A DNA stretch of 64,000 bases from a virus. Taxonomy: Duplodnaviria > Heunggongvirae > Uroviricota > Caudoviricetes. The notes beneath the pieces are model-generated. The model did no database searches and was not told the DNA's origin. It saw nothing but the letters and a program-made list of their open reading frames with translations. The position numbers and the translations under genes were made by a program. The stretch is from the IMG/VR virus record IMGVR_UViG_2861084961_000001; one strand, given 5' to 3'. This document shows, piece by piece, positions 6,724-51,780 of the stretch (positions within the stretch are counted from its first letter, which is position 1; every line of letters begins with the position of its first letter).

Positions 6724-7206
6724 ATGGTGATGGTTGTGAAAGCTGATTTGTCAAAAATCCCCTCTATTTCAGGAAATAATGGTTATTCACTTCGTTGTGA
6801 GGAAGTAAAGATAAACGGTGAGTCGGCATATTGCAGCTACTCCGTTTGCCAGCACACCATTCTTGCCTTCAAAGAAAACCGTCTTCCTCGAACTTCATTC
6901 CAGTCGTGCGCAACCGCTATCAAAGCAGGCAAATGCAAGGCGTTAAAAATGATGGTTGAAGAGATTCGTAAAGGAGAATCTCTGTATTTCGAAGATATGA
7001 CCGCGCTCATTAATGAGGTTGAAGAACGGAATAAACAAGCCAGAACTATAAAACGAAAACGTGACAGTGTAACGATTAATAGCATGGTTAAGAAGAGCGC
7101 CACATCACAAACAGCGATCACTGACGTGTATGCGGCGTTGCTTGAAGAAACAACAAAAGAAACACATGAGCAAATCGATCAACATATGGAGGCAAAACAA
7201 CAATGA
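6724..7206 (+). CDS. Hypothetical protein (160 aa)
   Basis: ORF; stop overlaps ligase start. Confidence 0.4.
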   Translation: MVMVVKADLSKIPSISGNNGYSLRCEEVKINGESAYCSYSVCQHTILAFKENRLPRTSFQSCATAIKAGKCKALKMMVEEIRKGESLYFEDMTALINEVEERNKQARTIKRKRDSVTINSMVKKSATSQTAITDVYAALLEETTKETHEQIDQHMEAKQQ

Positions 7207-8524
7207 AAAAGTTGATCGCACTTAAGCATAAGCTGGACGAAATGAAAGCTATGGGAACCAATGCAAAAAAAGAGGCATTGGCCAACATGGATGACTTCGA
7301 GCAAAGCATGGTTTCATTGATGCTCAACCCTTTCATCCGTTTTGGGGTAAAGAAATACAAAGTGGCAGAGCCGCTTAGTGAGTCCGTCCCAAGTGACGAA
7401 AAAGCCATTGATATACTGAATAAGCTGGCCTCTCGCGAGCTGACGGGGAACGCAGCAATAGCTGCTGTTGAGTCTATCGTGGCGTCAATGTGCGCCGATG
7501 GGCAGGACGTGTTCCGTCGTTTCCTCTTAAAAGACCCGAAAGCAGGTGTTGGGATTAGCCTATGCAACAAGGTTTTGAAAATCCCATTCCGAAATTCGAG
7601 GTGCAGCTGGCGTCACCGTATAAAGAAAAAGGCGACAAATACCCCTTCAAGCCAAATCCTAAAGCAAAATGGCCGATGATTGGCAGCCTTAAGCTCGATG
7701 GTTTGCGAGTAATTTGCGAGGTTATTGTTGACGAGGAAGAGGTGAACTTCCTTTCTCGTACTGGTAATCCAATCACGTCTCTCGATCACCTAAAGCCAGC
7801 CATGCTCGAATTAGGCAAACTTTCAGGCCACAAACACATCTTCTTCGATGGTGAAGGAACAGCCGGTTCATTTAACCAGTCCGTATCTGCATTGCGCAAA
7901 AAGAACGTGCAGGCAATTGGCGCTATTTATCATGTTTTCGACTTCTTCCTACCGGAATGGTGGGCACAGGCTAAATCCAAAGAGTATGCAAAGACAGGTA
8001 TGAAGCTGAAAGAGCGCCTGGCTATGCTCGTGGCGTTGTTCAAAAACGATCGCAGTGAAGACTATGCGCAAGACATTCACCTGCATCCGTTCTACATCAT
8101 CCATAGTCACGAAGACTTCATCGAACGCTTCATGAAACGCCTGGACGATAACGAAGAAGGGGAGATGGGCAAAGATCCGAACTCTGTTTACGAGTTTAAA
8201 CGTACCCGCAGCTGGTGGAAGTTAAAAGACGAAGATTCAGAAGATGGTGAAATTATCGACTTTGAGCCGGGTGACCCGGACTCTGGTTTTGCCAACACGC
8301 TTGGAAAAATTGTTATTCGCCTTGAAAACGGTGTGATTGTTCGTGCGAGCGGAATTAAGCATAAATATCTGGACGAGATCTGGAACAACAAAGAGAAGTA
8401 CCGTGGTCGTATTGTCGAGGTTCATTGTCACGAGAAAACGCCGGATGGCAGCTTACGCCACCCACGACTGAAATGGCCGCGTTGCTTACGCGATACAGAA
8501 GATCGAATCGGAGATAAAGAATGA
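7203..8524 (+). CDS. ATP-dependent DNA ligase (T4-type), reading frame broken at T-run 7573-7576
   Basis: N-terminal part LTGNAAIAAVE...GISLCNKV resembles T4 ligase N-domain; second frame carries adenylation motif SLKLDGLR (KxDG); inserting one T in the tttt run restores NKVFENPIPKF. Confidence 0.8.
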
Positions 8525-8700
8525 TGCTCGGCTGGATGATTGCATTTTTAGCAGTTGGTTTTTTTATCGGTATTGTGGTGATGTCCAGTTGCATTAATGA
8601 TTACATTAAAAACGGTGTTATAGAAAGACGCGGTCGTATTTATCGCATTGTAGAAATAACCAACACCGTGAAGGAGATTAAGGATGATCGTATTAAGTAA
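8521..8700 (+). CDS. Small single-pass membrane protein (59 aa), paralog of 8896..9048
   Basis: Hydrophobic N-terminus MMLGWMIAFLAVGFFIGIVV then RGRIYRIVEIT motif shared with next-but-one ORF. Confidence 0.4.
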   Translation: MMLGWMIAFLAVGFFIGIVVMSSCINDYIKNGVIERRGRIYRIVEITNTVKEIKDDRIK

Positions 8701-8899
8701 ACGGGAGAAGGAAACACTTCATGAAATCAGTAAGTGGCCGGAGTTCCCTGAGTACTGGAAGCCTAAAACGCGGGCTAAGTTAGAGCGGTTAGGGTTGGTT
8801 GCAAACGTTTCTGAAACGAAGTGTTCGGCCAACTACCAGTTAACTGATAAAGGGAAAGTATTGCTACAGCAATTAGTAGAATCAGGAGCGTTAAAATGA
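8684..8899 (+). CDS. Hypothetical small protein (71 aa)
   Basis: ORF with overlapping start/stop in small-gene cluster. Confidence 0.35.
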   Translation: MIVLSKREKETLHEISKWPEFPEYWKPKTRAKLERLGLVANVSETKCSANYQLTDKGKVLLQQLVESGALK

Positions 8900-9048
8900 T
8901 TCCATACATCTCATTAGCTTTTATGGGTGGCTTCCTTATCGGCTTCGGCATCTGTCGTGATTTAATTAAGCAGGAACTTAAAACCAAAACACTGTGCATC
9001 GGAAAGCGTGTGTATCGGGTAGTTCATGAAACAAAGGTTAGAAAATGA
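8896..9048 (+). CDS. Small single-pass membrane protein (50 aa), paralog of 8521..8700
   Basis: MIPYISLAFMGGFLIGFGIC then GKRVYRVVHET motif. Confidence 0.4.
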   Translation: MIPYISLAFMGGFLIGFGICRDLIKQELKTKTLCIGKRVYRVVHETKVRK

Positions 9049-9335
9049 GCAATTTAACTTCTTGGGACTGGTGGTTGGCCACCTATTTCTTAGCGGCCGG
9101 AGTCGCATTCGCCTTTTACGTAGGTCAGTTAGTCGTAAAACTGCTGCTGATTAAATTTGCCAGTCATAAACGTATCGATGATGGTCTGTGGCGTCTTGGC
9201 ACCCTGGTGGAAACTCGCTACGGGCAACTTAAGGAGAACGAAACCATTACTATCCAAGCGAAACGGTTCACTGCCACCATCACAAGAACACCTAGTCGTA
9301 GAGTGGCCTTGATCAAAAAAGTCACAACCGAATAA
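9045..9335 (+). CDS. Small membrane protein (96 aa)
   Basis: N-terminal hydrophobic segment WWLATYFLAAGVAFAFYVGQLVV. Confidence 0.4.
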   Translation: MSNLTSWDWWLATYFLAAGVAFAFYVGQLVVKLLLIKFASHKRIDDGLWRLGTLVETRYGQLKENETITIQAKRFTATITRTPSRRVALIKKVTTE

Positions 9336-10111
9336 AAATACAATAATAAGTATTTACTTACTTATCTTTTATGTATAAGATGACTTTGTTTTCGTTGAGA
9401 CGCGACTGTTTGAACTTAAATACAAGTGCAAACGAAGAAGTCTATCTGGCAGTAGCCTAATAAGCCAAACACCAGCGAGGTCAGTTTCCAGCCTCGTTAC
9501 CGAAATGGGACACACTGAGCGAGTGTGATTGCAGAACGCAGGAGGGAACATTCATGTTCCCTCCGATGAAGTAACAGAATGGGCGGTTGGTATATTTTCA
9601 ACTCCATATGACTCCCGGATTCTTAGCCACTGACCGCCCATCCTGTTACGTCATTTTGTTCAATTATGTCGTTTATACTGGGTTAAAAAGCGGCGACGTA
9701 GCCCGGCTGGTATGGTTAGCCAGCACACAACGTTGAGGCCATTACATTTTTATCAATTCTAAGGTTCTATTCACAGAGATACCGGCGAGCGTTGATATGT
9801 AACATGTTGGGCAAACATTCAATCGGAGTAGTGGCCTCAACGTTGTGAAGACAGGATTGTTGTGTAGGTTTAACCACTGTTGCCATTGGTGCCTGTTTTC
9901 ACAACAAATGATTCCATACATCACATTGTATAAATAACAAAGTAGGTGCTGTCCTCAGAAACATCATCTACTTAAAGATTTAGCCTTCTATTGAGCGAAG
10001 TCGAAAGCGTCTGGCACTAACGTAAAGTGCAAGTAGCGGTGCGTTTCCTGGCAGAAACTAACACCGCCGCGATTGGCACTGTTGAGTAATAAATACTGTC
10101 AGTGCTGAATT

Positions 10112-10186
10112 GATGGTGTAGCTCAGCGGTAGAGCAGTTGGCTGTTAACCAACTGGTCGGTGGTTCGAATCCACCCACCATCGCCA
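10112..10186 (+). tRNA. tRNA-Asn (anticodon GTT)
   Basis: Cloverleaf by eye: acceptor gatggtg/caccatc, anticodon loop ctGTTaa, T-loop ggttcgaat, CCA end. Confidence 0.8.
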
Positions 10187-10191
10187 ATTTA

Positions 10192-10278
10192 GGGGAGTTA
10201 GTCCGTAGAGGTAGCGGTGTAGACTGTAAATCTACTGTCATGGCGACTCGGGTGGTTCGACTCCATCACTCCCCACCA
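10192..10278 (+). tRNA. tRNA-Tyr (anticodon GTA), type II with long variable arm
   Basis: Acceptor ggggagt/actcccc, anticodon loop ctGTAaa, T-loop ggttcgact, CCA end. Confidence 0.75.
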
Positions 10279-10282
10279 AATT

Positions 10283-10358
10283 GCCGGTTTAGCTCAGTTG
10301 GTAGAGCGCCTGCCTTGTAAGCAGGATGTCAGCGGTTCGAGTCCGTTAACCGGCACCA
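10283..10358 (+). tRNA. tRNA-Thr (anticodon TGT)
   Basis: Acceptor gccggtt/aaccggc, D-arm agctcagttggtagagc, anticodon stem cctgc/gcagg with loop ctTGTaa, CCA end. Confidence 0.75.
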
Positions 10359-10582
10359 ATACAACGATAAGATCATTACGGTTAATCGTCGTTCATGTGC
10401 ACAATGACTGGTCGAAAGGTAGTGATCTTACCGTTGTGGTGGATTCGCAGACTGATGCGATAGCTTTCTTGGATGTTAGGGAAATGCGGCCGCAAATCTT
10501 CCCTTTCGCGAGCGGTGATCGTCCGTAGTCCTAATTGGCTGCACCGTATGCCGGAGATTCAGTACCGGCCACCACAACGGCC

Positions 10583-10669
10583 GGAGAGTAGGGAGCATGG
10601 TGCTCAAGCTGTCTTGAAAACCGCCCCATTGCGCAAGCGATGATGGTTCGATTCCATTACTCTCCGCCA
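10583..10669 (+). tRNA. Type II tRNA-like gene, anticodon TGA (Ser?), imperfect stems
   Basis: Acceptor ggagagt/actctcc, loop ctTGAaa, T-loop ggttcgatt, CCA; anticodon stem and variable arm pair poorly, may be non-canonical or pseudo. Confidence 0.5.
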
Positions 10670-10674
10670 GACAC

Positions 10675-10748
10675 AGCGTTGAGCGGTTTGGCCTTTTAAT
10701 CACCCAGATTAAGACTCCGCTAACATAAACCAGACCGCTCAACGCTGT
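10675..10748 (+). terminator. Long stem-loop (acagcgttgagcggtttgg ... ccagaccgctcaacgctgt) after tRNA cluster
   Basis: 19 bp inverted repeat directly after last tRNA. Confidence 0.45.
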
Positions 10749-10819
10749 GATAGACAATTACGGCAGACGTTCTTAACCATAGCTTGCTAACATCCTAGCA
10801 ACACTTTTTTCAGCGCAAA

Positions 10820-10845
10820 ATTCAAAGGGGCTTCGGCCCTTTTTG
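10820..10845. terminator. Bidirectional terminator hairpin aaaggggcttcggcccttttt
   Basis: GC stem gggc/gccc with ttcg loop flanked by A-run and T-run; lies just 3' of minus-strand gene 10846..11619. Confidence 0.65.
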
Positions 10846-11619
10846 TTAATGATTGCCTAGATATGATTTTAGTTCTTCTTTAATGATTAGTGAGTATTCT
10901 AAAATATCACTTAGTAAAAATTTTGCTCTGTTAAAATAACCACCAAAAGAACCAAAAATTTCAGATGGTCTTTCTAAGAGCATTACAATATCATCTTCTT
11001 GCACTTTAGCAATGTAACTTCTAACAGCTCTTTCTCCAATAACTCTTTTCTTACCGTTTATTTCAGATTCATCTAAAACCTTATTTATAAATTTTTCTGT
11101 ATCATTGAATCGTCCACTATTGTGTACTATTGTATGTCTTAGTAGTTCAATTAGCTTGATGTTAAAGCGATAGTTTTTACCAATCTTGTTGTTTATTTCT
11201 ATCTCTTTGAAGCCAGGTATTTTATTTCTGAAAATTTTAATTATTTTTTTCGATGGGTTACTTTTTGCTTTTAATAATTTGTAATAAACTTCCCCTTTCC
11301 CAATGTCATCATCTTCAACCTTACCAAAATAACTTGAGGACCAGAAATCATTTCGAACACATACAGTATAGACATATATTGCCTCAATATAGTCTTCCAG
11401 TAACTCATAGGCTTCAGTAATAACCCACTGATATTGTTTATTTTTCAAAACATTACACAATCTTATCTTTTCTTCTAAATCAATGGCGCTGTTACCTATC
11501 TCTAATGTTGAACCTGTATATGGGTTTGAACATAAATGGCGAGCTAACGTTGTGCCACACTTAATCTTAATAGTTTCATTAATATTAATAATAGTATCTG
11601 GATTCTGTGCATACTCCAC
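10846..11619 (-). CDS. AT-rich hypothetical protein (257 aa), possible HEPN/Abi-like
   Basis: Clean minus-strand ORF with GGAG RBS; markedly AT-rich compared with flanks; contains R-x4-H motif (LLRHTIVHNSGR). Confidence 0.5.
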   Translation of the reverse strand: MEYAQNPDTIININETIKIKCGTTLARHLCSNPYTGSTLEIGNSAIDLEEKIRLCNVLKNKQYQWVITEAYELLEDYIEAIYVYTVCVRNDFWSSSYFGKVEDDDIGKGEVYYKLLKAKSNPSKKIIKIFRNKIPGFKEIEINNKIGKNYRFNIKLIELLRHTIVHNSGRFNDTEKFINKVLDESEINGKKRVIGERAVRSYIAKVQEDDIVMLLERPSEIFGSFGGYFNRAKFLLSDILEYSLIIKEELKSYLGNH

Positions 11620-11925
11620 TTCTTTTAGAAGACGTTTATATTTTTCTTTGTTGTATCATTTATCTGATTTAAATAGTCAAAAAGTAAAGATATTTCTTCT
11701 CTAAATTCGTTGTATTTTTTTCAATCAAAGAATCAGACAACTTACCAATCATTAAAACCTCTATAAAATGTACATTTCAAGGCAATCCTTACTGTAATCT
11801 ATTGTCATAATCACTTCAATTGTTTACCAGTCAATCAATAAGTTACTACATACTTATCAAAAAAATCTGTTTGTAGTATAGTCTGATATGTTCGAATCAA
11901 TATTTATAAAGGTATTTGTTAGGTT

Positions 11926-12171
11926 ATGACGATCACTATCTACGGACGAGATAACTGCTCATACTGCAAACGTGCAGTCGAGCTGGCGAAGCAACTAAAG
12001 GGACATGGCTACGGTGATTATGAGTACATCGACATCACCACTGCCGGTATCGACAAGGAAAAACTAAGTGAAATTGTTGGTAAACCGGTAGAGACTATCC
12101 CCCAGGTGCTGATCGATGGCCAGCCGATTGGCGGATACACAGAACTGGCTGCATACGTCAGCACCCTCTGA
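11926..12171 (+). CDS. Glutaredoxin (Grx1/NrdC-like)
   Basis: 81 aa; CSYC active site near N-terminus; PVETIPQVLIDGQPIGGYTEL closely resembles E. coli glutaredoxin 1. Confidence 0.8.
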   Translation: MTITIYGRDNCSYCKRAVELAKQLKGHGYGDYEYIDITTAGIDKEKLSEIVGKPVETIPQVLIDGQPIGGYTELAAYVSTL

Positions 12172-12381
12172 TTTTAACGGCTCACAGGAGCCGTTTTTAT
12201 TCCCACCAAACTCACTCCTGTTTCCCTTAAAATTCAAAAAACGACGTCTAAATGATTCCATACCTACTATGTATGGAATCATTACTGAAAATGAGTTACT
12301 TTTACTCTTGATCCTATAAGAATCTATGCCTAATATACTGTTTACTTATACAGTGCATCGGCGTAACTCGGTGATTGTCAT

Positions 12382-13483
12382 ATGAAAAATAGCTTTGACA
12401 GAGCACGCGCTGCGGAGAACACCTCAAAAGAGGCGATTGAGTATCTCGAAAGAGCATCTCAAATGCAGGCCGTTATGATCTCCCAGGTCAGCAATGACAT
12501 GAGATTCTCGGACGCATTCATGTTATTCACTCGCTTATCTCTGCTGATAACCAGACGTCGGCCAGAGATCGCTGTTCATTGTATTTTGATACATGTTTTG
12601 CCGCACATTGCTGATGTAAAAGTAAGTGACATTAATAGGTTCATGGTGAACCAACTGGTCAACCCCCTAATACTGGATGGCAAAATTGTTATGGGCCGCC
12701 GCGTTTTCTCTCTGATGAAGCAGTTCCTTAGCTGGTGCGCCTTCCAGGGGATGATAGACGTGTCACCGTTAAACGATATGTCACTAAACAAAGTTGCCGG
12801 TGGCGCAAAGCCCACACCTCGCGAGCGTAAGCTGACCGACGCAGAGGTATGGGTGTTCTGGAATATATGGGACTACTTCAATGTGTGCGCTGGTACAAAA
12901 TGGGCGGCCAGGCTGTGTCTTGTATCAGCAAGACGACCTGACGAAGTACTGCGGGCTAAAAAAGTGAGTTCAATCTTAAGCGTGGAGTTTGGAATCAAGG
13001 CAAGAGAAACAAGTCAGCACGTGAGCATTCGCTGCCTTTAAGCACATTAATGCGCACATGCATTGAAGAGTTGTTCGAATACGGTAAAAACAGCCAGTGG
13101 CTCGTGCCTTCGAATAAAAAATCGGGAAAGACCTTCCTATGTCTAAAGTGGCAATAGCCCAGGCATTACGTCGTATTCTGGAACGACCAGAACTGATGGA
13201 GCTTGAGCCATTTACACCCCGAGATTTGCGCCGTACTGCGCGTAGTTACTTCCCAGCATTAGGCATAAGCCAGGAGGTATCACGCAAAATCATGAACCAC
13301 AGTCTTGAGGGGATAGATCGGGTCTACGACCGGCACGATTATATGGACGAGATGCGAGACGCCTTAGAAAGTTTCTCGACGTACATCGCATCAATCGTAG
13401 AGCAACCGGATTTAGACGAAATTGACCACAAATTCAAGGGAGATCGTCTATCAACAGAGCTTATTCGTGTAAATTTTTCATAG
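12382..13483 (+). CDS. Tyrosine recombinase/integrase (P4-like), frame broken twice (around 13041 and 13139)
   Basis: C-terminal HSLPLSTLMRT..., FTPRDLRRTARSY..., IMNHSLEGIDRVYDRHDY resemble integrase catalytic region (R..H..R..Y); three frames all shifting -1. Confidence 0.6.
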
Positions 13484-13864
13484 AGACTTTATGGCCTCAA
13501 CAACCTTTTGTGATGCGCCTTTCTCTTTACCGAATCGCTCGTTATATGCAGCAAGAACCTGTTTTTCGTCCTCGTTAAGAGGAGCGGTGCCTTCTTTGTA
13601 TAAAAATGCTGCGAGTTCAGGTTGGCGTTCTTCCAGCACCATCATCATAAGACGACTTGGCTCAATACCCAGCGCCAGCGCCAGCGGACGAACCTTATCG
13701 ATAGGCAAAGGAATTTTGCCACTTTTAATTAAAGAAAGGTTGTTGGCATTTTTATAACCAATAAGTCTGGCTATTTGGGCCTGACTCATAGGTGAGGATT
13801 CAATCAGCCCTGCGATAAAAGCAGCATAGCGACTTTCTATAAATTCAATCTTGTTGTCAGACAT
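13478..13864 (-). CDS. XRE-family HTH transcriptional regulator (CI/Cro-like repressor candidate)
   Basis: Helix-turn-helix SQAQIARLIGYKNANNLSLIKSGK; divergent from downstream operon; palindromic ggtaagtgcttacc in its upstream region. Confidence 0.7.
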   Translation of the reverse strand: MSDNKIEFIESRYAAFIAGLIESSPMSQAQIARLIGYKNANNLSLIKSGKIPLPIDKVRPLALALGIEPSRLMMMVLEERQPELAAFLYKEGTAPLNEDEKQVLAAYNERFGKEKGASQKVVEAIKSL

Positions 13865-13894
13865 TGTTACAACCTTTGCGCGTTTAATTCTCTC

Positions 13895-13908
13895 TGGTAA
13901 GTGCTTAC
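13895..13908. promoter_or_regulatory. Palindromic operator candidate GGTAAGTGCTTACC in the XRE regulator promoter region
   Basis: Perfect 14 bp palindrome; same half-site as dispersed intergenic motif. Confidence 0.5.
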
Positions 13909-14115
13909 CGATATTACATCAAAGGTTAGGGTTGTAAAGCTATTATCATTTTTTTCGGCAGGCACTTGTAAGACCGAGCAAAGGTCCATGCATGGAGAAA
14001 AACTAGCCCCAAATAGGTAAGAAAATTAACTTGCATCTGATATGGATGTATTCAGTATTGATACAAATTTTAGTAGTATTCCTTACCATAGTATAAGTTA
14101 GAATGGATTGATTGA

Positions 14116-14328
14116 ATGAAAACCACTATTTCCAGCCTAATCGCTCTTGAGATCGGACACGTACAGAAATTAGCTGATGAGTGTGTAGCTGACATCCTCA
14201 CCGATCTACCGAATGAGCAGATTCAGGTTGGTGTGAATGACACAACTGGCTTTATATTCGAACTTAACAACAAACGCTTCACACTTCTCAATACCGGCTC
14301 CGGGTCTTTAGCCATCAGAATCTGTTAA
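14116..14328 (+). CDS. Hypothetical small protein (70 aa)
   Basis: ORF only. Confidence 0.3.
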   Translation: MKTTISSLIALEIGHVQKLADECVADILTDLPNEQIQVGVNDTTGFIFELNNKRFTLLNTGSGSLAIRIC

Positions 14329-14426
14329 CCCCTCTTCTCCCTGCGCGAATGGCTTAGTTCCCTGTTCGCGCAGTGCTACATTAAACACACTAGTAAATAA
14401 TTTGTTTTCATAACAAAGGATTAGCC

Positions 14427-16534
14427 ATGTCTAAAAAACGTTCCATCAAAGAGGTTCAGGACTTCCGTGACAGTGTAAAACGAGTAGTCGCTCTCCTTTC
14501 AGGTAAAAACATCCCTGTTGCAGAACGAGGGGACGACGCTTATGTACGCTATAACGATGATGGAGAGCCAATTCTCGTAAACATCCCATCAATCCCGGAT
14601 AACGCAACACCGGCATTGATGAATGCTGTGCGCGGATTTCTCGATCATGAGGTTGCTCACATTTTGTTTACCGATATTCGTGTGTCCAACAAAATGAGAG
14701 AAAAAGGACGCGTTCCTTCCTGGTCACTATGGAATGCCTTAGAAGACGTGTTCATCGAGCGAAAAATGGGGCAGGTCTTTAACGGAACGAGACGTAATCT
14801 GATGGCAACTCAGCGCCTTATAATCGAAAAAGTCTTTAAACCAAAGGCTTCAGAGGCTATTGATTATTGTGGCAAAGATCAGCGCGCGCTTTTTCTAAAC
14901 TTCTTTCTCTGTCCGGTTGTAAGAGCCTGGGATGGCCAAGCACCGTTCGTAGATTTCATGGATGAATACTGGCCTGTCATTGAGAAACCAATTTCATTAT
15001 TAAAAGAACATGGTATCGATGTGGCCGTGCGTAACATGTCTTGCACCGAGGATTGTGTAAAGGTGGCTGCGACCATAGCTAAGATCCTCAAAGACACTGA
15101 AAGTGAAAGCAAAGGTAAGGAGTCAGCTCCGGGAAAAACTTCCGATCCTTCAGATACTGACCAAACGGATGCCTCTGGAGAAAACAATGAAGACAACGAA
15201 GATCATGAGACACCCTCAGCGTTAGATAATCACAAATCTATCGAATCAGAATCACACAGTAAGCACAAACATGATAATAACGACAGTGATGATTCAGATA
15301 ATTCTGAATCATCAGAAACAATATTCGATGATACAGAAAATGATAAAGAGGTATCAGATTCTGATGCTTCTGATAACGCGGCGTCAGAATCATTAACCGC
15401 TGACCACGAAAAAAGAAAAACGACAGAAGACGGCTCTTCAGATATTCCAACTCCGTCAAAAATGAGTCTGGAAGAGGCTTTAGAGGAGCTGGATAGCATA
15501 GAAGATGAAGTCGGAGGCATGACAGAAGATGCTCTATCCGAAACGATTAAAAGCGAGTTAACAGAAAGCTCGAAAGCGAATACAGGCCATACAATCGCTC
15601 ATACGACTTCATCGGCTCGATTGATCAGGCAGAAGCCCATATCAAACGGCTTATTAAAACATTCTCCGATATTGATTTAGGAGGATATCCAATCAGCCGC
15701 TATCGCATCGTTCCTGAAGGCAACCAGCTCTTCGACAAATATATTGAAAAGCATCTTTCGTCAGGTGTTTCGTCGACGCTGGCAAAAGACCTGGAGCGAG
15801 CAATAGCAAGCAGAAACAGAGTTCAGTTTATACCGGGCCAGCGTCGGGGGCGCATTCATGGTTCTAGTATCTACAGATTAGCAATGAATGATGATCGCGT
15901 GTTTCGTAAAAAAGAAGAATCTAAAGCCGTTAACGCCTGTGTTCAACAAGTGATTGATTTATCAGGTTCAATGAGTGGTATAACGATACAATTGGCTCTT
16001 GCAAGTGCATATACCATCGCCGATGCCCTTGATCGAATAAATGTTCCCAACATTATCACCGGCTTCACTACATTTGGTAGTCATATGGCGGCAGGAGAAC
16101 TTAAGGCTGTCAAGTATGAGTTCTCTCGCTTTGAATCTTTAATGCTACCTATCATCAAAAATTGGAATGAAAAGGCAAATTCTCGCGAAGTTCGCTCACG
16201 TATGGGGTGCGTAGGCTACACATTCCCACTTCTTAATAACGTGGATGGTGAAAGCATAGCCAGCCTTGCATCGTTATTTTCTGGTCGCATGGAGGACAAG
16301 AAGATCATGCTTGTTCTAAGCGATGGCGCGCCGTGGGCTGTTGGGAGAGGTTTTGACGCTCATTTGCGTTCGGTTGCGAAGCAAATTGAAACGCAGACTG
16401 ACATTGATTTGATGGCAATTGGCATCATGACTGACGCACCGGAGAGATTTTACGCAAACCATGCCCTGGTAACGAGCGTTGATAGTCTTGGTTCATCTGT
16501 AGTTACTGAACTATCTCGTATCATTTTGAAGTGA
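14427..16534 (+). CDS. CobT-like vWA-domain protein with acidic Ser/Asp-rich linker; frame broken near 15550-15600
   Basis: C-terminal vWA MIDAS motif VIDLSGSMSG; long D/E/S-rich low-complexity region; conserved AACAAAGGATTAGCCATG start context; second frame is open upstream of 15884. Confidence 0.6.
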
Positions 16535-16629
16535 TTAGAACAGCCTTAATGATAAGTAATCACTTACGTTATTTGATGGTATATTTATATAAGAAGTTGA
16601 AAGCTCATTAGAAAACAAAGGAAAAACGC

Positions 16630-16902
16630 ATGACTACTACTGCACTGCAAAATGAAAAAAATCCTTCTGATTACCTTGTTTGCAAGTGGTGCGGAAAATC
16701 ATTTCACTATTTTAAGTCCCATGTAGCCAATGGTAATTGCGAGGGCATTCCTGAGTCAGTAAAAGATGCCGATCCTGACACCGTACTGAAAATGTACACA
16801 ACGCAGTTTCCAGATGAGCCAACGCTATCGAAAAAGGCACTTGATGCAATTCAAGCTAAACGTGCCGAGCAAAAAGCGAAATGGCCAAATCATCTGGCGT
16901 GA
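16630..16902 (+). CDS. Small zinc-ribbon-like protein (90 aa)
   Basis: CKWCGKSFHYFKSH...CEG cysteine/histidine cluster; conserved start context. Confidence 0.4.
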   Translation: MTTTALQNEKNPSDYLVCKWCGKSFHYFKSHVANGNCEGIPESVKDADPDTVLKMYTTQFPDEPTLSKKALDAIQAKRAEQKAKWPNHLA

Positions 16903-17864
16903 CCAATAGCCCAGGCTATACAGGCACAGTTGAGTACAAGACAGATCTGGTCGCAGCTCACGAACTGCTAAATGTAACGGTGAAAGAACTCGGAACAAAA
17001 CGTGGGACGCCGCTCATGGTTAGCGTCAACGTCAATACGCCGTTTCCAGAGTTCGTTCCAGAAGTGAAGAAGGGATACGTATATGGCGACTTCGAACTGA
17101 TCAAAGACATTTTCATGATGCTTGAACTTGGCATACCAGGCTATTTGTGGGGTCATGCAGGAACAGGCAAATCTTCATTGCCTACACAACTATGTGCTTT
17201 GCTCAATCGTCCGTTAATCCGTGCCCAACATACAGCATCAATGGAAGAGGCTCATGTTACGGGACAAATTCTGGCGCGTGATGGCTCTACGTATTTCGAG
17301 CCTGGCTTGCTTGCGCTCGCAATGAAGCATGGCTGGGTTTACCTCGCGGATGAATACGACTTTGCGTTTCCACAGATTCTTGGCGTGTATCAGCCAGTGC
17401 TGGAAGGTGAAGCGTTGGTCATCAAAGAGGCGACTCCAGAATGGCGTCGCATTACTCCGCATGAACGGTTTGCTTTCATTGGCACTGGCAACACGAACGG
17501 ATCTGGTGATGAAACCGGCTTGTACCAGGGTACAAACATCCAGAACGCCGCTAACTTTTCGCGTTTTGGCATCGTTTCGAATGTGAAATACATGAGCAAA
17601 GAGGCAGAGATCAACATGTTGATAAATGCCGGCATCGTGGATGAATACGCTGAAAAGATGGTTAAGTTTGCCGGTATCGTTCGCGATGGATACGAAGAAC
17701 ACCTGATCAGTCAGCCGATTGGCCCTCGTGAACTTTTGTTGTCGGCCAAGATTGGAATGATGCGAGGCGACTTTGTGACAGGTATTGAGCGTTCTTTCAT
17801 TAACAAACTCCCTTCAGCTTCTGCGCAAGCGGCACGTGAAGTTGTTCAAAAAATATTTGGTTAA
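16881..17864 (+). CDS. MoxR/CobS-like AAA+ ATPase
   Basis: Walker A GHAGTGKSS, Walker B WVYLADEYD; size and pairing with vWA protein. Confidence 0.75.
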   Translation: MAKSSGVTNSPGYTGTVEYKTDLVAAHELLNVTVKELGTKRGTPLMVSVNVNTPFPEFVPEVKKGYVYGDFELIKDIFMMLELGIPGYLWGHAGTGKSSLPTQLCALLNRPLIRAQHTASMEEAHVTGQILARDGSTYFEPGLLALAMKHGWVYLADEYDFAFPQILGVYQPVLEGEALVIKEATPEWRRITPHERFAFIGTGNTNGSGDETGLYQGTNIQNAANFSRFGIVSNVKYMSKEAEINMLINAGIVDEYAEKMVKFAGIVRDGYEEHLISQPIGPRELLLSAKIGMMRGDFVTGIERSFINKLPSASAQAAREVVQKIFG

Positions 17865-18043
17865 TCGTGCGTAAAGGATGTTTCGGCTCTCTTATCGCTG
17901 CTTCTGAAACTGGCAAGGCTTGTCTGGTGTGTCCAGACAAGCCCGATTGTCACCAATCAGCAAAAGAAGTTGCGATTTCGATGTATGGGAAGTTCGTAGG
18001 CTTCCCCAATGACAAAATCAAAAAACCAGAAAGGTAAAAACAC

Positions 18044-21556: not shown

Positions 21557-21659
21557 TCCAATAAACATGGCCATAAAGGCCATGTTTTCCCTTATCCCCT
21601 CACATCCCCCTATCTTCAAGCTCATTGCCTCATCATTACAATGATATAATCAATACAAA

Positions 21660-22115: not shown

Positions 22116-22232
22116 TTTTTGATAGATAATAAGTAAGTACTGATCTATCATTGAGCAGCTCGAAAGAGCCACGAATGAACGAAAGCCCAACGCGCATAGC
22201 GCCATCGGCCAAATCACAACAAGGAGAAACAC

Positions 22233-23261: not shown

Positions 23262-23277
23262 TCCCATTACGTGACCA

Positions 23278-23306
23278 GTAAGGCGTCTACGGACGCCTTA
23301 CTTTTT
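23278..23306 (+). terminator. Terminator hairpin gtaaggcgtctacggacgccttac + T-run
   Basis: Stem ggcgtc/gacgcc, tacg loop, ttttt. Confidence 0.7.
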
Positions 23307-23321
23307 GGAAGGAATGTACCG

Positions 23322-27654: not shown

Positions 27655-27779
27655 AAAATTGTCATTTAGCTTTACGCATGAAGCATAGAGGTTAATAAGA
27701 TGAAAAGAAAATTGAAGAACCAAAAACAACCCTTAATAAACATGGGGAAAAAATTCAAACACATCCAGCGTTCGGTCTT

Positions 27780-37346: not shown

Positions 37347-38078
37347 ATTAAGCCGCACGCAGTTTTTGCAGGTATTTGCAGTGATGCAGTCGATAAAACT
37401 GATCAATGGGCATACTTCCAATGGTGCGGCTCCACGTATTCTGTGGGGCAGCAACAATATTGACGGAGTACAATTCGCCGCGTTGCTTGGTCTAATATCC
37501 GAGACACCATTGATGCAAAGTTTGAAATCACTACCACCTGGATGTATTGCGCCGATCCTGATTAATCCTTTTGTTGAGGGGGATATCTTCCCAACGTCGG
37601 GCCTGGGTTTATTGCATCCCATGAAACTGAAGATCTTAACATTAATAGCGAAGGGTTCTTTGGGGGAATGGGTGCGCATCACTGTATGGCTTTCACGAAC
37701 CTTATTCGACTTGCCAATAAGCGGGTGGATAGTTTGGCATCTCCAGGTGATGCTTTTACTGATTTCCTTATCCAAAGGAGGGATAAAAAGTACAGTGCGG
37801 ACAAACTACAGTTTATTGGTAAGTATGGAGAAATGGTAGAAATCGAACTTCAGCTCCCTCATGTTTTAGCAAACGATAGTGCAGACAGTCGGAGGCTGTT
37901 GGGCATCATGCGTCATTTCATAGCAAGTGGCGTTAAACATGCCGTAGATAAACGTGTCACGCAGGAAAATGAGTATTCAGACTTTGCAAACTATCCCCAA
38001 CCAACGTTGCAAACGGCAATAATAGCCAATTCGTTGGAGGCGAGATTATTGGAAAACCCTATATGGGGAACATGGTAA
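37336..38078 (+). CDS. Hypothetical protein (two overlapping ORFs in -1 relation)
   Basis: ORFs 37336..37839 and 37668..38078; first frame looks partly non-protein-like, true frame path uncertain. Confidence 0.3.
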
Positions 38079-38124
38079 GGAGACTATATGAGTAAAAAAT
38101 CAGCGTAGTTGGTGTTGATCCTCA

Positions 38125-38654
38125 ATGAGTAACTTTGGGCTTGCTGTGGGCACTTTAGACCTTGAAACGGACGAACTTGAGATTCACGGCCTTACTCTTG
38201 TTGAGACTAAAGCGGGGAGTAACAAAAAGACAGTTCGTGTGAACAGCGACGATCTGCGCCGTGCCAGTGAAATATGGCGTGTTGCGAAGCCAATCATTGA
38301 TAAGGCAAATATGGTTTTTTGTGAGCTACCGGTTGGGAGCCAAACTCTCGTTCGCAGACGTCTTACGGAATTTGTATCGGTGTACTTGCGTGTGTGGATA
38401 AGCCATTGATCCAGGTTACTCCAAACGAAATTAAGCATTTTGTCGGCAATAAACTTACTACATCGAAAGAAGAGATTATCCAGTGGGCTACGAAAAAACA
38501 CCCTAAAGCACCGTGGCTGCGTCGTAAGCAATCTGGACAGGATGTTCTCGTGAACAAAAACGAACATTTGGCTGATGCGGTGGCTGCCATCCATACCGGT
38601 ATGCAAACGGATCAGTTCCGCCAGGTGCGCGATGTTCTTAAGTCTCTCATTTGA
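38125..38654 (+). CDS. RuvC-like Holliday junction resolvase candidate (frame break near 38400)
   Basis: C-terminal EHLADAVAAIHTG resembles RuvC D..DA.A.A..H motif; combined length ~176 aa. Confidence 0.45.
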
Positions 38655-41043: not shown

Positions 41044-41147
41044 CATATGGTGGGGGGTATCCCACCTTCTCTTTGATTTGTAAGCCTTGTTTAAACAAAT
41101 AAGATAACAACTTGTTTAAACACATCAAAAAGCAAAAGGAAAAACAC

Positions 41148-43408: not shown

Positions 43409-44511
43409 GTGTCACTCCTTTTGAATCGTGAGCATACGAACGGTCAGGTAACAAACGCATCGTATGCAAAAGTTATTGAGACGGTGCTTAAAGCGGCGTG
43501 CAGGCTGATGATCGCACAGGCACTGGTACTTTAAGCACCTGCTACGTTCCCTCTTACTACATGCTTACTGGTGGGACTGTGCCGCTTATTTCTGGAAAGG
43601 CGGTAAATCTTAAGCCACTACTTGTCGAACTTGAGTGGTATCTGAAAGGCACGGGTAACATCCAATTTCTCAAGGATAACGGCGTGAAGATTTGGGACGC
43701 ATGGGCCGATGAGAATGGTGATTTGGGGCCGGTTTACGGCAAGCAGTGGCGTCGCTGGGAAGATACCCGCATCGTGAGCCATAGTGAGTATCTGAGCAAG
43801 ATCGATACGTTCCGTGAACGCGGGTACAAAGTCGAGGGATACCTGGGTATCAGTGAAGATCGCGTAGTGCTGTCCCGTGAAATCGATCAGCTACAGCGTA
43901 TTGTCGATACACTGCGCACGAACCCTACCGATCGTCGCATCATGCTTAACGCATGGAACGTAGGCGAGCTTGAGGATATGAAACTGCCACCTTGCCACTT
44001 TGTCTTCTCTTTGTGGAGTCGTGAGCTTGATTTTGAAACCCGTTTAACGATGGCAACTGACATTGGTCTTCAACACAGTCGCCTCGGTTACGAGTCTATC
44101 TATACCAAGATGCTATACGATCTGGAGATGGTCGGCAGTGTTACTGAAACTGAACTGGATGAACTTGGAATCCCCAAACGCATCCTCAACTCCTGCCTCG
44201 TACAGCGTAGCGTAGACACTTTTGTTGGTATGCCATTCAATATTGCTGGTTATGGCATTCTCACTCATTTTCTCGCGAAGATTACGGGTCACATGGCCGG
44301 TGCCTTTGTGCATTTTGGCTTTGACGTGCATTTGTACAACAACCACATGGAAGGTGTGTGTGAGCTAATGAAACGACAGGCTCCAGAGCATTCAGATCCG
44401 GTCGTTATTTTCCCTCATGAATGGTCAGAGTTGGATGATTTCAAATGGGACGAGGTTCTAATTCTTGGCTATGCCCCTCTACCGTGGATCAAGGTTCCAG
44501 TGGCGGTGTGA
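43409..44511 (+). CDS. thyA: Thymidylate synthase (ThyA-type) with two internal insertions; N-terminal frame break at A-run 43490-43492, start uncertain
   Basis: DRTGTGTLS, WDAWADENGDLGPVYGKQWR, catalytic LPPCHF, PFNIAGY (Asn retained); adding one A at 43490-43492 joins VIETVLK to SGVQADDRTGTGT. Confidence 0.8.
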
Positions 44512-44512
44512 T

Positions 44513-44926
44513 ATGGCAAGAGGTATGTATGTCTTATGCGAAATTGAAGGTGTGCTGGCAAATACCAGCCATCGTAAATCTGTATCTGACGCGGATGCAG
44601 GCCAGCTCATTGCCGGTGATGAACTCATTTTCCCCACCAGCCGTATGTTGCGTGGTTTTGCTCGCTCAGGGGCTGAAGTGGTGCTTATCAGTAGCCGCTC
44701 TGAAACTCTTGAAGCGCCCACTAAACGATGGCTGAAAGATTTTGGTGTTGATTACGACTGGCTTCATCTCGTACCGAATGGCATCAGTTATGAGAAGCAT
44801 ATTAAGCGCACATTAGCGGAGCATAAAGGCGATCTGCTTATCGCTGCGCTGGTGCACGATCCTCGACTCCGTGCCGCTTTAGCTGACTCTCATCATAGAC
44901 CGGTCATCTATGAGGTGGGCAAATGA
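44513..44926 (+). CDS. HAD-like hydrolase fold protein (possible deoxyribonucleotidase) with E-for-D substitutions in motif I
   Basis: YVLCEIEGVLAN in place of canonical DxDGVL; VVLISSRSE motif II-like. Confidence 0.35.
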   Translation: MARGMYVLCEIEGVLANTSHRKSVSDADAGQLIAGDELIFPTSRMLRGFARSGAEVVLISSRSETLEAPTKRWLKDFGVDYDWLHLVPNGISYEKHIKRTLAEHKGDLLIAALVHDPRLRAALADSHHRPVIYEVGK

Positions 44927-45398
44927 AGATGATAGCTGCTGTTGGCCGTAACTATGAGATCGGCATAGCGAACGAACTGCCCTGGCGTTGTTCTACCGAT
45001 CTGAAGCTATTTAAGAGACTCACCAAAAACGCCACTGTCGTTATGGGCGTAAAACGATGGAAAGTCTCAAACGTCCTCTTCCAGAGCGTCATAACCTCGT
45101 TTTGACGCGCTCTCATGGCTTTGTACCAAATGGATTCTACCCTGCTGGTGTGGATGATGTGTTGCGATTACCAGAGCCTGTGTGGGTGATTGGCGGGGAA
45201 CAAATTTACTCGCTATTCATGCCGCATGTTGAAGAGATTTGGCTCTCCCACATCGGCGTTGATGTACCAAACGCTGATGCATTCTTCCCGGCAAGCATGA
45301 TGCGTAACTTAGGCTTTGTGCCTGTTGAAACAGCTTATACCCAACGAGCCAGCGAGGAAGAGCCTGGCTTTTCGCAGATCGTATACAGAAGGTCGTAA
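44923..45398 (+). CDS. folA: Dihydrofolate reductase, frame broken at A-run 45051-45054
   Basis: MIAAVGRNYEIGIANELPW and VMGVK...ESLKRPLPERHNLVLT, VWVIGGEQIY match DHFR; adding one A restores GVKTMESLKRPLPER. Confidence 0.8.
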
Positions 45399-46041
45399 TG
45401 GATTACCGGATTGGGATCACTGGTGCTCAGGGCAGTGGGAAAACAACCCTGGCTAAATATATCGACAAACATTACGGAATCCCTTACGTGGATGCTGGTG
45501 TCGGAAGTTTGATGAGCCGCCTCGGTGTTCGAGTAGGTGAGTCTATGCCTCTATATGAGCGGCTTCAGATTCAAATGGAAATAGCAAAGCATATAGAGCT
45601 ACTTACGCGTGGTGTTGAAGGCTTTGTTATCGATCGCACACCTGCTGATGTTATGGCCTACACGTTGGATTTGGTCGGTCATACCAATGAAGATCGGTGT
45701 ATTGAGTTAGCCCTCGATATCGAAAAGTTTTGCCACAAAACTGCTATTTCAAACTTTAACGCCATTGCTGGCCTACGCCCGGAGTCGCTCTCACAGAGCG
45801 AGATTACTTGCGATCACAACGAGCATCATTAGACCGTCTGTATGTTGCTCGTATTGATGCGTTGATGTGCGGGGAACTGACAAAAATTCACCTGCATCCG
45901 CAAAGGGGAGATCTGCAAACCTTCGTCGTTTCCAACCGATATCGCACGGTTGAAGCAAGAGCCAGATCAGTGATGAGAATGCTAGATAACGCTGTAGAAA
46001 AGATAGAAAACCGGTTCTGTGGCCGAGTGACCGTTCATTAG
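45398..46041 (+). CDS. P-loop kinase (dNMP kinase-like candidate), frame break near 45810
   Basis: Walker A GITGAQGSGKTTLA; two ORFs in -1 relation. Confidence 0.5.
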
Positions 46042-46531: not shown

Positions 46532-47088
46532 ATGACAACGATTGTTGCAGGCATCGATATCGAGTCTACGGGACTGGATTTCCTTGCTGGTCATAAAATT
46601 ATTGAAATCGCAATTACCCGCTATGAACTGGAGACACAGAGACATATTGATAGTCTGGAGATGCGTTTTAACCCTCGCAGAAACATAGATCCGAAAGCTC
46701 AAGCCGTTCATGGCATTTCATTGGAACAGCTCGCAGCTGAACCTTTGTTGTCAAATCATGCCAGCGAAATTGGCGCTTATATGGGGGCATGTAGTGCGTG
46801 GATTGCTCATAACGGCGAAGCGTTTGATATACCATTTATTCGACACGAGTTTTCAGGGTATGGAGTAAGACTGCCAGACGTTCCTGTTATAGATACTATG
46901 TTATCGGGATTGTGGCCACAGAAGACGGTAAACGTCCCCGCCTTGAAGAGTTGGCCTTCTCTCTTGGCTTTATATACGATCATGCCAAAGCACATAGTGC
47001 CTTATATGACACAAACTTAATGATGCAATGCTTCTTTAAGGCACGTAATAAGTACGGATTTTTTAAATTACCCTCTGAAATTGTGTAA
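46532..47088 (+). CDS. DnaQ-like 3'-5' exonuclease (DEDDh), frame break near 46940-46960
   Basis: Exo I GIDIESTGLD, Exo II HNGEAFDIPFI, and Exo III HSALYDTNLM in the -1 frame downstream of a cccc run. Confidence 0.65.
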
Positions 47089-47248: not shown

Positions 47249-48057
47249 ATGAGTTCGGTTGAAAATGTAATGACAAATGATGATCTGGACGAACTGACAG
47301 CTATGTTGCAATCACTTGATGAACCGGTAAAAAAAGCTGCACAGGTTGAGAATACTGATGATATTGACGATCTGCTTCTAGGCCTCGATGCTGGCGTAGC
47401 CATGAGTTCTGATGATGTTGCCGAAGAACTGTTCAATGAAGAAAAAGCAGGTGATTTTAGCTCCGCTTTAAATGAGTTGGAGTTAGCGCATGAGCCTATA
47501 AACGTAATTAACGCTGAAAGTGGTGAAGCTGCCGAAAATGAGCCAGAACAGTTGGGGATCATTGAGGTTGAAGAGTGTGTTGAGGTTAATGATGAATTAA
47601 AAGTTCAACAGTCAAATGATAGCAATACAAATAAAAAGCTCGTGCTGCAAGAGGTCCTCGTTTTACTTTAAGTGATAAAGATGATTCGTTTTTCAATAAA
47701 GCAGGCTTAGAAAAAGATATTTTCTTAGACGCTTATGAAAACGCGCCTGTCAAAGCGAAGGATAAGATATTAAACCTTCTTAATTGGTTTAGCGGAGGTC
47801 CAGATATTAGTGTTTACACGGTAATTTCCATGAGACACCTTCTCACAGAAAAGAAGGCTACAAGTAATAGTATTAAGATTGCTTTAATGAGCAATCCAGA
47901 AAAACCGTATCCGCTTAACACTGCGTCAACTCAGGCTGGGCAAATGATGGCTGTATTTCCAGCTACAGGAATTGCCGTTAGAGACGGTGGAAATCTAACA
48001 TTGAACGAAGAATCACCGATCGTTAAGAAGTTTGTCGCGGAGTACACTATTGGATGA
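47249..48057 (+). CDS. Highly acidic N-terminal protein (DNA-mimic-like anti-restriction candidate), frame break near 47650
   Basis: N-terminal 130 aa rich in D/E; C-terminal part continues in -1 frame; sits immediately upstream of orphan methyltransferase. Confidence 0.4.
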
Positions 48058-48833: not shown

Positions 48834-48858
48834 TTTGTTCTGGCGAGTGTAATTAACC

Positions 48859-50421: not shown

Positions 50422-50569
50422 TAAGTAAGTGTTTACCTATCATTTTAAATCATGTATCTTATCGGCGTCAGGATGACAATGTGTCGGTAAGACACAGTTC
50501 CAGGATGGAACGAGAAAGGCGGCTGGCAATCGCCAGCCGCAACTCTTTCTGACACTGGATGGAGTCCAC

Positions 50570-51064
50570 ATGGCACGTCAAACCTATTTCACTTCTGCAA
50601 CTAAACGTCCTCGTTCTTTACGTCAAATTTTGGCCGAATTATTTAGCGGTCGTGTTATGTCACGTCTTGATGAACTAGAGACTACCGTTCGGTTGCTGAA
50701 TGAACGTTTAGATAATCAAGCGTCAGTTGTTGCGAACGTGGGGGCGATTGTTGCCTCTGGTTCTTCACGCGAAGCGAAAAGTACACGGCCTTTAGTGAAG
50801 GAGAAAAACAACAAGGACAGTTCGAATGGAAAATTTTCAAAGAAAGAGGCTGAAACCAATGGCCTACGTTCTCATTATAGTTTCACTGGCGACGGTAGCC
50901 GTTCCAGCCGGCCAGAGCCTTTTGATGCCGGATTCATCCATCACCACACCTTCGTCGACGACAATTACCACCACTCCAGTGGAGCGTCCTGTCACTCTGG
51001 ATGGGATGGCGGTGGATGCGATACCTCAAGTTCATCCAGTTACTCAGGATCATGCTGTGACTAA
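50570..51064 (+). CDS. Hypothetical Ser/His/Cys-rich protein (164 aa)
   Basis: ORF. Confidence 0.4.
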   Translation: MARQTYFTSATKRPRSLRQILAELFSGRVMSRLDELETTVRLLNERLDNQASVVANVGAIVASGSSREAKSTRPLVKEKNNKDSSNGKFSKKEAETNGLRSHYSFTGDGSRSSRPEPFDAGFIHHHTFVDDNYHHSSGASCHSGWDGGGCDTSSSSSYSGSCCD

Positions 51065-51073
51065 GGCGGTTGT

Positions 51074-51262
51074 ATGAACTGGTTTTCAAATCACTTTGGA
51101 AAAATTTGGCTGGCAATTCTTGCCCTCATGGCCGCCGGTTGGGTATCGAACATTATAAAACTTGTTTGCTCTGGCGATCTCCAGTTTCAGGCTGGCATGA
51201 CCTTGGCTCGTGTAGTTGGGATTTTTGTTTTTCCAGTTGGTTCGGTACTTGGTTATTTCTGA
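51074..51262 (+). CDS. Small membrane protein (62 aa)
   Basis: Two hydrophobic segments. Confidence 0.35.
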   Translation: MNWFSNHFGKIWLAILALMAAGWVSNIIKLVCSGDLQFQAGMTLARVVGIFVFPVGSVLGYF

Positions 51263-51355
51263 CGGCTGTTAGTGCATATGCATTGACCATCTCTGCGTAA
51301 GCAATTTATGTAATTAGAAAACAACTTGTTTTGACAAATAATAAAAGGAAAACAC

Positions 51356-51780
51356 ATGTTAGGTTTCTTCAAAAAGAAAACTCGTAAAGCTGTTATCGAA
51401 GTCAAAAAATGGAGAACCGTGATGCGGTTGAGGCCACCGTGTGGGGCGCGTACATGATCTCCTATGCCGACGGCACATGTGACGCAAAAGAAATTGCCAT
51501 TCTTGAGAAGACAATTGCAGCTCTGCCTGCGTTTTCTCCGTTTGCTGGTGAAATTGCCCAAATGAGCGCCAATATCCGTGCTCGTTACGAAGCGTCCCCT
51601 CGTTCTGCTAATGCACAGGCTATTCGTGAGCTGTCTGATATTGCGGGTACTCCAGAGGCGGTCGATGTTCTGTGTCTGTGCCTTGATATTGCCGATCAGG
51701 ACGGCATTGGTGAACAAGAAGAGCAGGCACTGAAAAAGATCGCCCAGGCGCTTCAGTTGTCACTGGATGCTTATCTCTAA
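51356..51780 (+). CDS. TerB-like domain protein, frame broken at A-run 51404-51409
   Basis: ATVWGAYMISYADGTCDAKEIAILEK...DQDGIGEQEEQALKKIAQAL resembles TerB; ATG 51356 follows conserved AAAAGGAAAACACATG. Confidence 0.5.

Follow-up and report, generated by a model that had tools for sequence, protein, structure and literature searches.

The window analyzed here, a stretch of 64,000 nt given in the IMG/VR virus record IMGVR_UViG_2861084961_000001, is part of an SSU5/pHCM2-like phage-plasmid of Escherichia (PMC7969092), and many of its long genes appear in it as chains of short open reading frames (ORFs). Compared with close relatives, these genes are broken by single-base deletions which are private to the window, have one direction, depend on the length of the run of identical bases, are neutral to coding and, once repaired, give back known proteins exactly. 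We consider it highly probable that the broken genes result from under-calling of homopolymer length and not from decay, and that the genes are to be read as intact. The original prediction, made from the letters alone, had taken the breaks to be sequencing indels rather than pseudogenes, and it is supported by the privacy, direction and run-length dependence of the deletions, by the small number of substitutions and by the exact restoration of the proteins.

The window was aligned at the base level first with four relatives and finally with 42, which came from different projects and comprised complete RefSeq plasmids, NCBI draft genomes, ENA metagenome assemblies and Logan run assemblies. Against the 42 relatives, the window carries private deletions of 46 single bases at 45 sites and no private insertion (two-sided sign test, p = 2.8e-14). 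The support at each site is 100% of the covering relatives (3 to 26 each). Comparison with related elements was one of the checks that the original prediction had proposed, and all covering relatives keep the longer runs.

The losses depend strongly on run length. Runs of a true length of at least 3 nt hold 16% of the bases and account for 44 of the 46 deletions (p ~1e-32). As a correction to the original prediction, one deletion, the G lost after 33138, lies outside any homopolymer; the other exception to runs of at least 3 nt is the contraction of TT to T at 34940. The fraction of runs contracted rises with true length, from 0.01% at 2 nt through 0.28% at 3 nt, 2.4% at 4 nt, 2.9% at 5 nt and 17% at 6 nt to 35% at 7 nt, and the sole run of true length 8 nt in the window was contracted as well. 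Runs of 2 to 4 nt contain 22 of the deletions. Overall, about 0.72 bases per kb were dropped. According to the annotation of the relatives, 22 genes contain 35 of the deleted bases, and the other 11 lie between genes. When genes were mapped crudely on the corrected sequence, 38 of the 46 events were coding, where 38.5 are expected from run lengths alone. The deletions are blind to coding status and give no sign of selection, and the replication initiator and the polymerase are affected on the same footing as other genes.

The sites are listed below with strand (intergenic sites have none), the gene affected, the run in the window and its true length, and the number of covering relatives with the extra base over the number covering the site. 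The one substitution that breaks a gene is given last.

153-157: intergenic; T5, true T6; 3/3, with varying gap placement
7573-7576 (+): DNA ligase (440 aa); T4, true T5; 12/12; the corrected protein is an exact database match
10837-10844: intergenic, just 3' of the minus-strand 302-aa gene; C3 then T5, true C4 and T6; 10/10
11635-11637 (-): 302-aa hypothetical gene; T3, true T4; 7/7
11715-11721 (-): 302-aa hypothetical gene; T7, true T8; 9/9
12958-12963 (+): integrase, break 1; A6, true A7; 26/26
13116-13121 (+): integrase, break 2; A6, true A7; 26/26; the corrected integrase is an exact match
15573-15575 (+): CobT-like protein (702 aa); A3, true A4; 20/20; exact match after correction
16871-16875 (+): AAA_5/CobS-like ATPase (411 aa); A5, true A6; 20/20; exact match after correction
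18020-18025: intergenic, upstream of dnaE; A6, true A7; 20/20
18594-18596 (+): DnaE, break 1; C3, true C4; 20/20
18768-18771 (+): DnaE, break 2; C4, true C5; 20/20
19469-19471 (+): DnaE, break 3; A3, true A4; 20/20
20217-20221 (+): DnaE, break 4; A5, true A6; 20/20
20563-20566 (+): DnaE, break 5; T4, true T5; 20/20
21089-21091 (+): DnaE, break 6; C3, true C4; 20/20
26423-26424 (+): SPFH/Band_7 protein (276 aa); A2, true A3; 17/17
27708-27711 (+): 246-aa hypothetical gene; A4, true A5; 13/13
28495-28500 (+): 129-aa hypothetical gene; A6, true A7; 16/16
28865-28869: intergenic; T5, true T6; 20/20
29441-29446: intergenic, after the NinX-like gene; T6, true T7; 9/9
30515-30518: intergenic; T4, true T5; 24/24
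31359-31363: intergenic, 3' of the minus-strand rep; T5, true T6 or longer; 23/23
31497-31500: intergenic, 3' of the minus-strand rep; A4, true A5; 23/23
32729-32731 (-): Rep3/RepB-family initiator (404 aa); C3 (a G-run on the gene strand), true length 4; 23/23
33138-33139: intergenic; G missing between T33138 and A33139 (GTGAA in relatives), the only non-homopolymer deletion; 22/22
34776-34777 (+): SbcD-like protein, break 1; C2, true length 3; 14/14
34940 (+): SbcD-like protein, break 2; single T, true TT; 14/14
34994-34996 (+): SbcD-like protein, break 3; A3, true A4; 14/14
35727-35728 (+): SbcC-like protein, break 1; A2, true A3; 14/14
36333-36335 (+): SbcC-like protein, break 2; A3, true A4; 14/14
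37000-37004 (+): SbcC-like protein, break 3; A5, true A6; 14/14
37578-37582 (+): 247-aa hypothetical gene; G5, true G6; 14/14
38094-38099 (+): 189-aa hypothetical gene, break 1; A6, true A7; 14/14
38120-38121 (+): 189-aa hypothetical gene, break 2; C2, true C3; 14/14
38342-38344 (+): 189-aa hypothetical gene, break 3; A3, true A4; 14/14
41061-41063: intergenic, in the nrdA-nrdB gap; C3, true C4; 14/14
43490-43492 (+): thymidylate synthase (367 aa); A3, true A4; 16/16
45045-45047 (+): DHFR (158 aa); G3, true G4; 16/16; repair of this G-run gives an exact database match
45781-45782 (+): AAA_28 kinase-like ATPase (214 aa); G2, true G3; 16/16; exact match after correction
46914-46915 (+): DnaQ-like 3'-5' exonuclease (185 aa); G2, true G3; 16/16
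47633-47637 (+): acidic 269-aa protein; A5, true A6; 16/16; exact match after correction
51404-51409 (+): TerB-like protein (141 aa); A6, true A7; 7/7
51842-51844 (+): DUF3927 protein (52 aa); T3, true T4; 7/7
59606-59608 (+): 195-aa hypothetical gene; G3, true G4; 3/3, the nearest relative L027 among them
56518-56520 (+): 180-aa gene 56374-56913; TAG stop where relatives have TGG (W49); private G>A at 56519 against 7/7

The frames of the pieces were read by tblastn of the relatives' proteins onto the window. Each split gene consists of consecutive pieces whose frame moves by -1 at every junction, and every break is a 1-nt deletion in the alignments, as had been foreseen for all frame breaks in long genes. 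The six breaks predicted for DnaE were recovered as seven pieces in frames 2>1>3>2>1>3>2. Integrase runs through frames 1>3>2 (two breaks) and SbcC through 3>2>1>3 (three breaks), and SbcD has three breaks as judged from the alignment. One break each was found in ligase, CobT and SPFH (all 3>2), in ThyA, the kinase-like AAA_28 protein, the DnaQ-like protein, the acidic 269-aa protein and TerB (all 2>1), in DHFR (1>3), in the minus-strand Rep (-2>-1) and in the AAA_5/CobS-like and DUF3927 genes. Among the hypothetical genes, those of 247 and 195 aa have one break, that of 302 aa has two and that of 189 aa has three, and the 246-aa and 129-aa genes are broken once apiece near the gene start. The genes named as affected in the original prediction are all split by -1 steps, although that list was incomplete: to it are added the AAA_5/CobS-like gene (16871), the hypothetical genes of 246, 129, 247, 189, 195 and 302 aa and DUF3927, as well as the 11 intergenic events and those at 153, 51842 and 59606, which lie beyond the range that it covered.

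With one base added per site, every tested gene became a single full-length ORF that is 97-100% identical to its relatives and free of stops, with the exception of the nonsense codon in the 180-aa gene. All 10 of the frame-restored proteins looked up were exact, residue-for-residue public matches, on 9 to at least 1000 contigs each. DnaE, with six bases restored, matched a 1172-aa protein exactly on 68 contigs, and after three repairs each SbcD did so on at least 1000 contigs and SbcC on 142. The corrected Rep initiator is 100% identical to the protein of pEC881_2. None of the 10 truncated products is present among about 15 billion public proteins, and an exact look-up of the CobT fragment gave no match. 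Wherever a locus of a relative contains one of the 22 genes (3-24 loci for each gene), that gene is intact and in a single frame, which, together with the 10 exact matches, bears out the advice to assume intact genes. Most of the plasmid's dnaE region is present in 240 E. coli RefSeq genomes, and dnaE is one gene among the records listed, one copy interrupted by an insertion sequence (IS) excepted. The 32-mer of the window that spans the first dnaE deletion (18594-18596) had no matches in the viral (IMG/VR), metagenome and genome collections, whereas the corrected 33-mer is present in 60 IMG/VR viral contigs. The 32-mer over the sbcC deletion at 36333-36335 is likewise absent from IMG/VR, and no record identical to the window was found in the phage, plasmid or E. 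coli collections.

Four homopolymers had been proposed as places where a single added base would restore a gene. Three of them were located correctly (ligase 7573-7576, ThyA 43490-43492 and TerB 51404-51409), but for DHFR the base is missing from the G-run at 45045-45047 and not from the A-run at 45051-45054. Repair of the A-run also restores the frame and a length of 158 aa but yields R43V, whereas repair of the G-run gives an exact match. The corrected DHFR (44923-45398, +) is identical at 157 of 158 positions to the protein that NCBI names trimethoprim-resistant DfrA51. It has been shown experimentally that dfrA51 raises the minimum inhibitory concentration of trimethoprim and confers resistance to it (PMC12217456).

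In substitutions, the window is very close to its nearest relatives. The Logan assembly of run ERR13185810 differs from window positions 10036-23474 (13.4 kb) by no substitution and 15 missing bases, GCA_023797875.1 from 28745-51037 (22.3 kb) by 5 substitutions and 23 deletions, and GCA_012600915.1 (L027) from 42792-64000 (21.2 kb) by 1 substitution and 8 deletions. In the 63.5 kb for which three or more relatives were available, only 5 private substitutions remain; when these five were checked by eye for GATC or CCWGG methylation motifs, none was found inside one. Apparent private insertions at 21679 and 61258-61264 and apparent private substitutions at 7961, 8272, 10610, 13089, 16569 and 21811 were discarded once closer relatives had been added; they are present in those relatives and are therefore ordinary lineage polymorphisms. 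The closest relative shifts along the window, from E. albertii pEA26_1 at 1-10.8 kb (99.86%) to ERR13185810 at 10-23.5 kb, GCA_023797875.1 at 28.7-51 kb and GCA_012600915.1 at 42.8-64 kb. Judged by this shift, the window is a recombinational mosaic of the sort usual in this plasmid group.

From these observations we infer that the cause lies in sequencing or assembly rather than in mutation. We suggest that a consensus method that under-calls homopolymer length was applied to an ordinary SSU5/pHCM2-like Escherichia phage-plasmid. It would have dropped about 0.7 bases per kb from runs of identical bases, with loss likelier in longer runs; each loss inside a gene would move the downstream frame by -1 and turn the gene into a chain of overlapping ORF fragments, and the real molecule would carry intact genes. 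The source is most likely an unpolished or poorly polished long-read assembly, the platform being presumed. The window has the traits of such an artefact, namely private indels, a deletion-only bias, run-length dependence, a great excess of indels over substitutions and blindness to coding. Errors in nanopore assemblies have been reported to be mostly false deletions in homopolymers of 2-8 nt, with A/T runs the commonest and non-repeat deletions rare (PMC12007338).

Several points weigh against under-calling. The argument is comparative and goes through the relatives rather than through reads, quality values or the source record. Published long-read profiles include a minority of insertion errors, and the window, which has none at all, is more one-sided than they are. 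The events are sparser towards both ends, with 3 found at 1-10 kb and 52-64 kb where about 14.4 were expected, although this split was made post hoc and predates the discovery of four further sites at 10.8-11.7 kb; an unbiased test in 4-kb bins with the added sites included found no significant unevenness of event density (p = 0.16). A real unevenness would suggest that read depth varied or that polishing was partial. Finally, a private nonsense substitution at 56519 (G>A, TGG>TAG) interrupts the 180-aa gene at 56374-56913. All other gene breaks in the window are 1-nt deletions, and across 21 kb the nearest relative, L027, differs from the window by no other substitution. This W49* change may be a substitution error, rarer than the deletions, or a genuine nonsense mutation. 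A suppressor tRNA that reads the TAG at 56518-56520 was ruled out, the four tRNAs of the window being Asn-GTT, Tyr-GTA, Thr-TGT and Ser-TGA. The copies of this gene in the relatives carry PF26211 (Phage_phiTE_072).

The deletions could instead be real and reflect very recent, massive pseudogenisation through slippage during replication, as might happen in a hypermutator host or once the element had lost its own DnaQ-like proofreader. The frameshifts are indeed present in the sequence as given, true slippage favors homopolymers too, the nonsense substitution at 56519 would fit, and the case against such decay is made by comparison. However, mutation-accumulation lines of mismatch-repair-defective E. 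coli gave 30,061 substitutions against 5,324 small indels, or about 5.6 substitutions per indel (PMC8510543), and under this spectrum the probability of at least 46 indels among 51 changes, as seen here with 46 deletions, no insertions and 5 substitutions, is p = 1.5e-32. The nearest relatives differ by only 0-5 substitutions over 13-22 kb, and 22 events lie in runs of merely 2-4 nt. The Rep initiator, DnaE (six times over) and integrase would all be dead, yet there are no IS insertions, larger deletions or other signs of decay; instead of a mixed mutational spectrum, only 1-nt deletions and one nonsense substitution were found, and no other stops persist after correction. The alleles occur in no other assembly, and none of the 42 relatives shares any of them. 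We therefore regard real decay as very unlikely. It is likewise very unlikely that the short runs record a sudden spell of -1 slippage, confined to homopolymers and nearly free of substitutions, in a freshly dead element, a possible cause of which would be replication by the element's own DnaE without the DnaQ-like proofreader and beyond host mismatch repair. Such a spell, if true, would be a mutational signature unlike any described bacterial spectrum.

It might also be supposed that the cell decodes the breaks, either through programmed -1 frameshifting of the ribosome or through slippage in transcription, which would restore the frame in RNA. All the shifts are -1, and a few A-rich runs (such as AAAAAAG at 12958 and 28495) resemble the slippery sequence of dnaX. 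Nevertheless, a zero-frame X XXY YYZ heptamer was found at none of the 25 plus-strand coding sites tested, and the sites are not conserved, as every relative has an uninterrupted ORF that is one base longer. Because the tested sites have no slippery heptamer and no site is conserved, programmed frameshifting is rejected. In addition, 11 events of the same kind lie in intergenic DNA, and three or six successive shifts in one gene would leave negligible product. Rescue by transcriptional slippage is known for A/T tracts far longer than the runs of 2-6 nt in the window, which also counts against decoding in RNA, and we consider the whole explanation exceedingly improbable. A last possibility is that the window is correct and that each extra base in the relatives is an insertion, either erroneous or derived and shared among them; it has in its favor only the formal symmetry of a pairwise gap. 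Against it, 3-26 independent assemblies agree at each site, and the version of the relatives consists of long intact ORFs with Pfam domains where that of the window consists of fragments; the chance that the relatives are wrong is practically nil.

Under-calling of homopolymers, the favored explanation, makes the finding a sequence-quality artefact on a well-known kind of element, without biological novelty, and its consequences are practical rather than conceptual. The 22 genes, including those for the Rep initiator, DnaE, integrase, SbcCD, thymidylate synthase and DHFR, are to be annotated as intact, and the 45 sites listed above amount to a patch file for the window. The artefactual frameshift in DHFR would hide a dfrA51-like gene from resistance screens. 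The source assembly should be treated as unpolished; if the rest of it is of equal quality, it would contain thousands of false frameshifts, and its pseudogene counts, resistance-gene calls and gene-content comparisons would be unreliable before polishing.

The placement of the window in the SSU5/pHCM2-like group is based on identity, synteny and the combination of a Rep3/RepB-family initiator with phage-type genes for replication and nucleotide metabolism. When the segments 7-27 kb, 27-52 kb and 51.5-64 kb were searched with Megablast, hundreds of plasmids of Escherichia, Shigella and E. albertii were found at 96-99% identity, together with the Escherichia phages CMS-2020a, Cyrano and PhiR41_1. 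More than 170 of the plasmids from E. coli, Shigella and E. albertii, as well as the phages Cyrano and CMS-2020a, are 97-99.9% identical to the window; DNA identity to Salmonella phage SSU5 is about 80%. The related plasmids have the replicon type rep_cluster_488 and are non-mobilizable. The window covers the replication, recombination and nucleotide-metabolism half of the phage-plasmid, and in the relatives the phage structural genes (terminase, portal and tail) lie immediately beyond its limits. Its gene order is that of the annotated relatives. It begins with a ParA-like ATPase, a DnaB-like helicase, a primase and the ATP-dependent ligase, followed by the tRNA cluster, glutaredoxin and integrase and then by the block of CobT-like, AAA_5, DnaE, gp32-like, 5'-3' exonuclease, RecA-like and SPFH genes. 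After the minus-strand Rep3/RepB-family initiator come SbcD-like, SbcC-like, NrdA, NrdB, thymidylate synthase, DHFR and AAA_28 genes, then the DnaQ-like exonuclease, a Dam-like methylase, RNase HI, TerB-like and DUF4942 genes, and finally S24 peptidase, ApbC and MetG.

Within this conserved order, some positions vary. One such slot separates the ParA-like module from the dnaB-like gene and is occupied in the window by a gene for a 255-aa GIY-YIG protein (1372-2139, -), which matches the PADLOC anti-phage defence model PD-T4-3 (E = 1.3e-23) and Pfam LEM-3_GIY-YIG. In other relatives, the same slot holds a KAP-family NTPase, a 352-aa gene or a DUF2971 pair, and because its contents vary among relatives it looks like an accessory or defence hotspot. 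The four tRNA genes at 10112-10669 (+; Asn-GTT, Tyr-GTA, Thr-TGT and Ser-TGA) form a cluster, part of which shares 93% identity with the tRNA region of phage P7. Between this cluster and the glutaredoxin gene lies the 302-aa gene (10846-11755, -), complete after two corrections and without a match in Pfam or PADLOC; the relatives have at this position unrelated genes of 298 to 438 aa or a gp49-like gene. In some relatives, the RecA-like gene encodes 779 aa owing to an intein with a LAGLIDADG domain (L020, 12303-14642), and in others a LAGLIDADG homing endonuclease is annotated in the part of the plasmid that matches window 7-27 kb; the window itself has neither this intein nor that endonuclease. 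The window also carries homologues of two housekeeping genes, apbC/mrp (61841-62941, -) and metG (+, starting at about 63100 and running to the end), and both are conserved among the plasmids of the relatives.

The pattern can be compared with four known systems. Genuine decay in prophages, plasmids and host-restricted pathogens likewise leaves many interrupted frames, but it comprises nonsense changes, insertions, deletions of varied size and IS elements that are shared among isolates, whereas the breaks in the window are of one kind, private and accompanied by few substitutions. Programmed -1 frameshifting, as in dnaX and the phage tail chaperone G/GT, has the same direction; unlike those genes, the window has no slippery heptamer at the tested sites and no conservation, and it shows several breaks per gene and intergenic events as well. 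The consensus errors of long-read assemblies (nanopore or PacBio CLR; PMC12007338) resemble those of the window in the false deletions, the 2-8-nt runs, the predominance of A/T runs, the occasional loss of a non-repeat base, the splitting of genes into consecutive ORFs and the detectability against close references. They differ in that published assemblies include a minority of insertions and the window has none, the platform of the window again being presumed. With the SSU5/pHCM2-like phage-plasmids themselves (SSU5 and Cyrano; PMC7969092), the window has gene order and content in common, and it differs from them only by the artefactual frameshifts, the usual mosaic variation of the accessory slots and one private nonsense codon.

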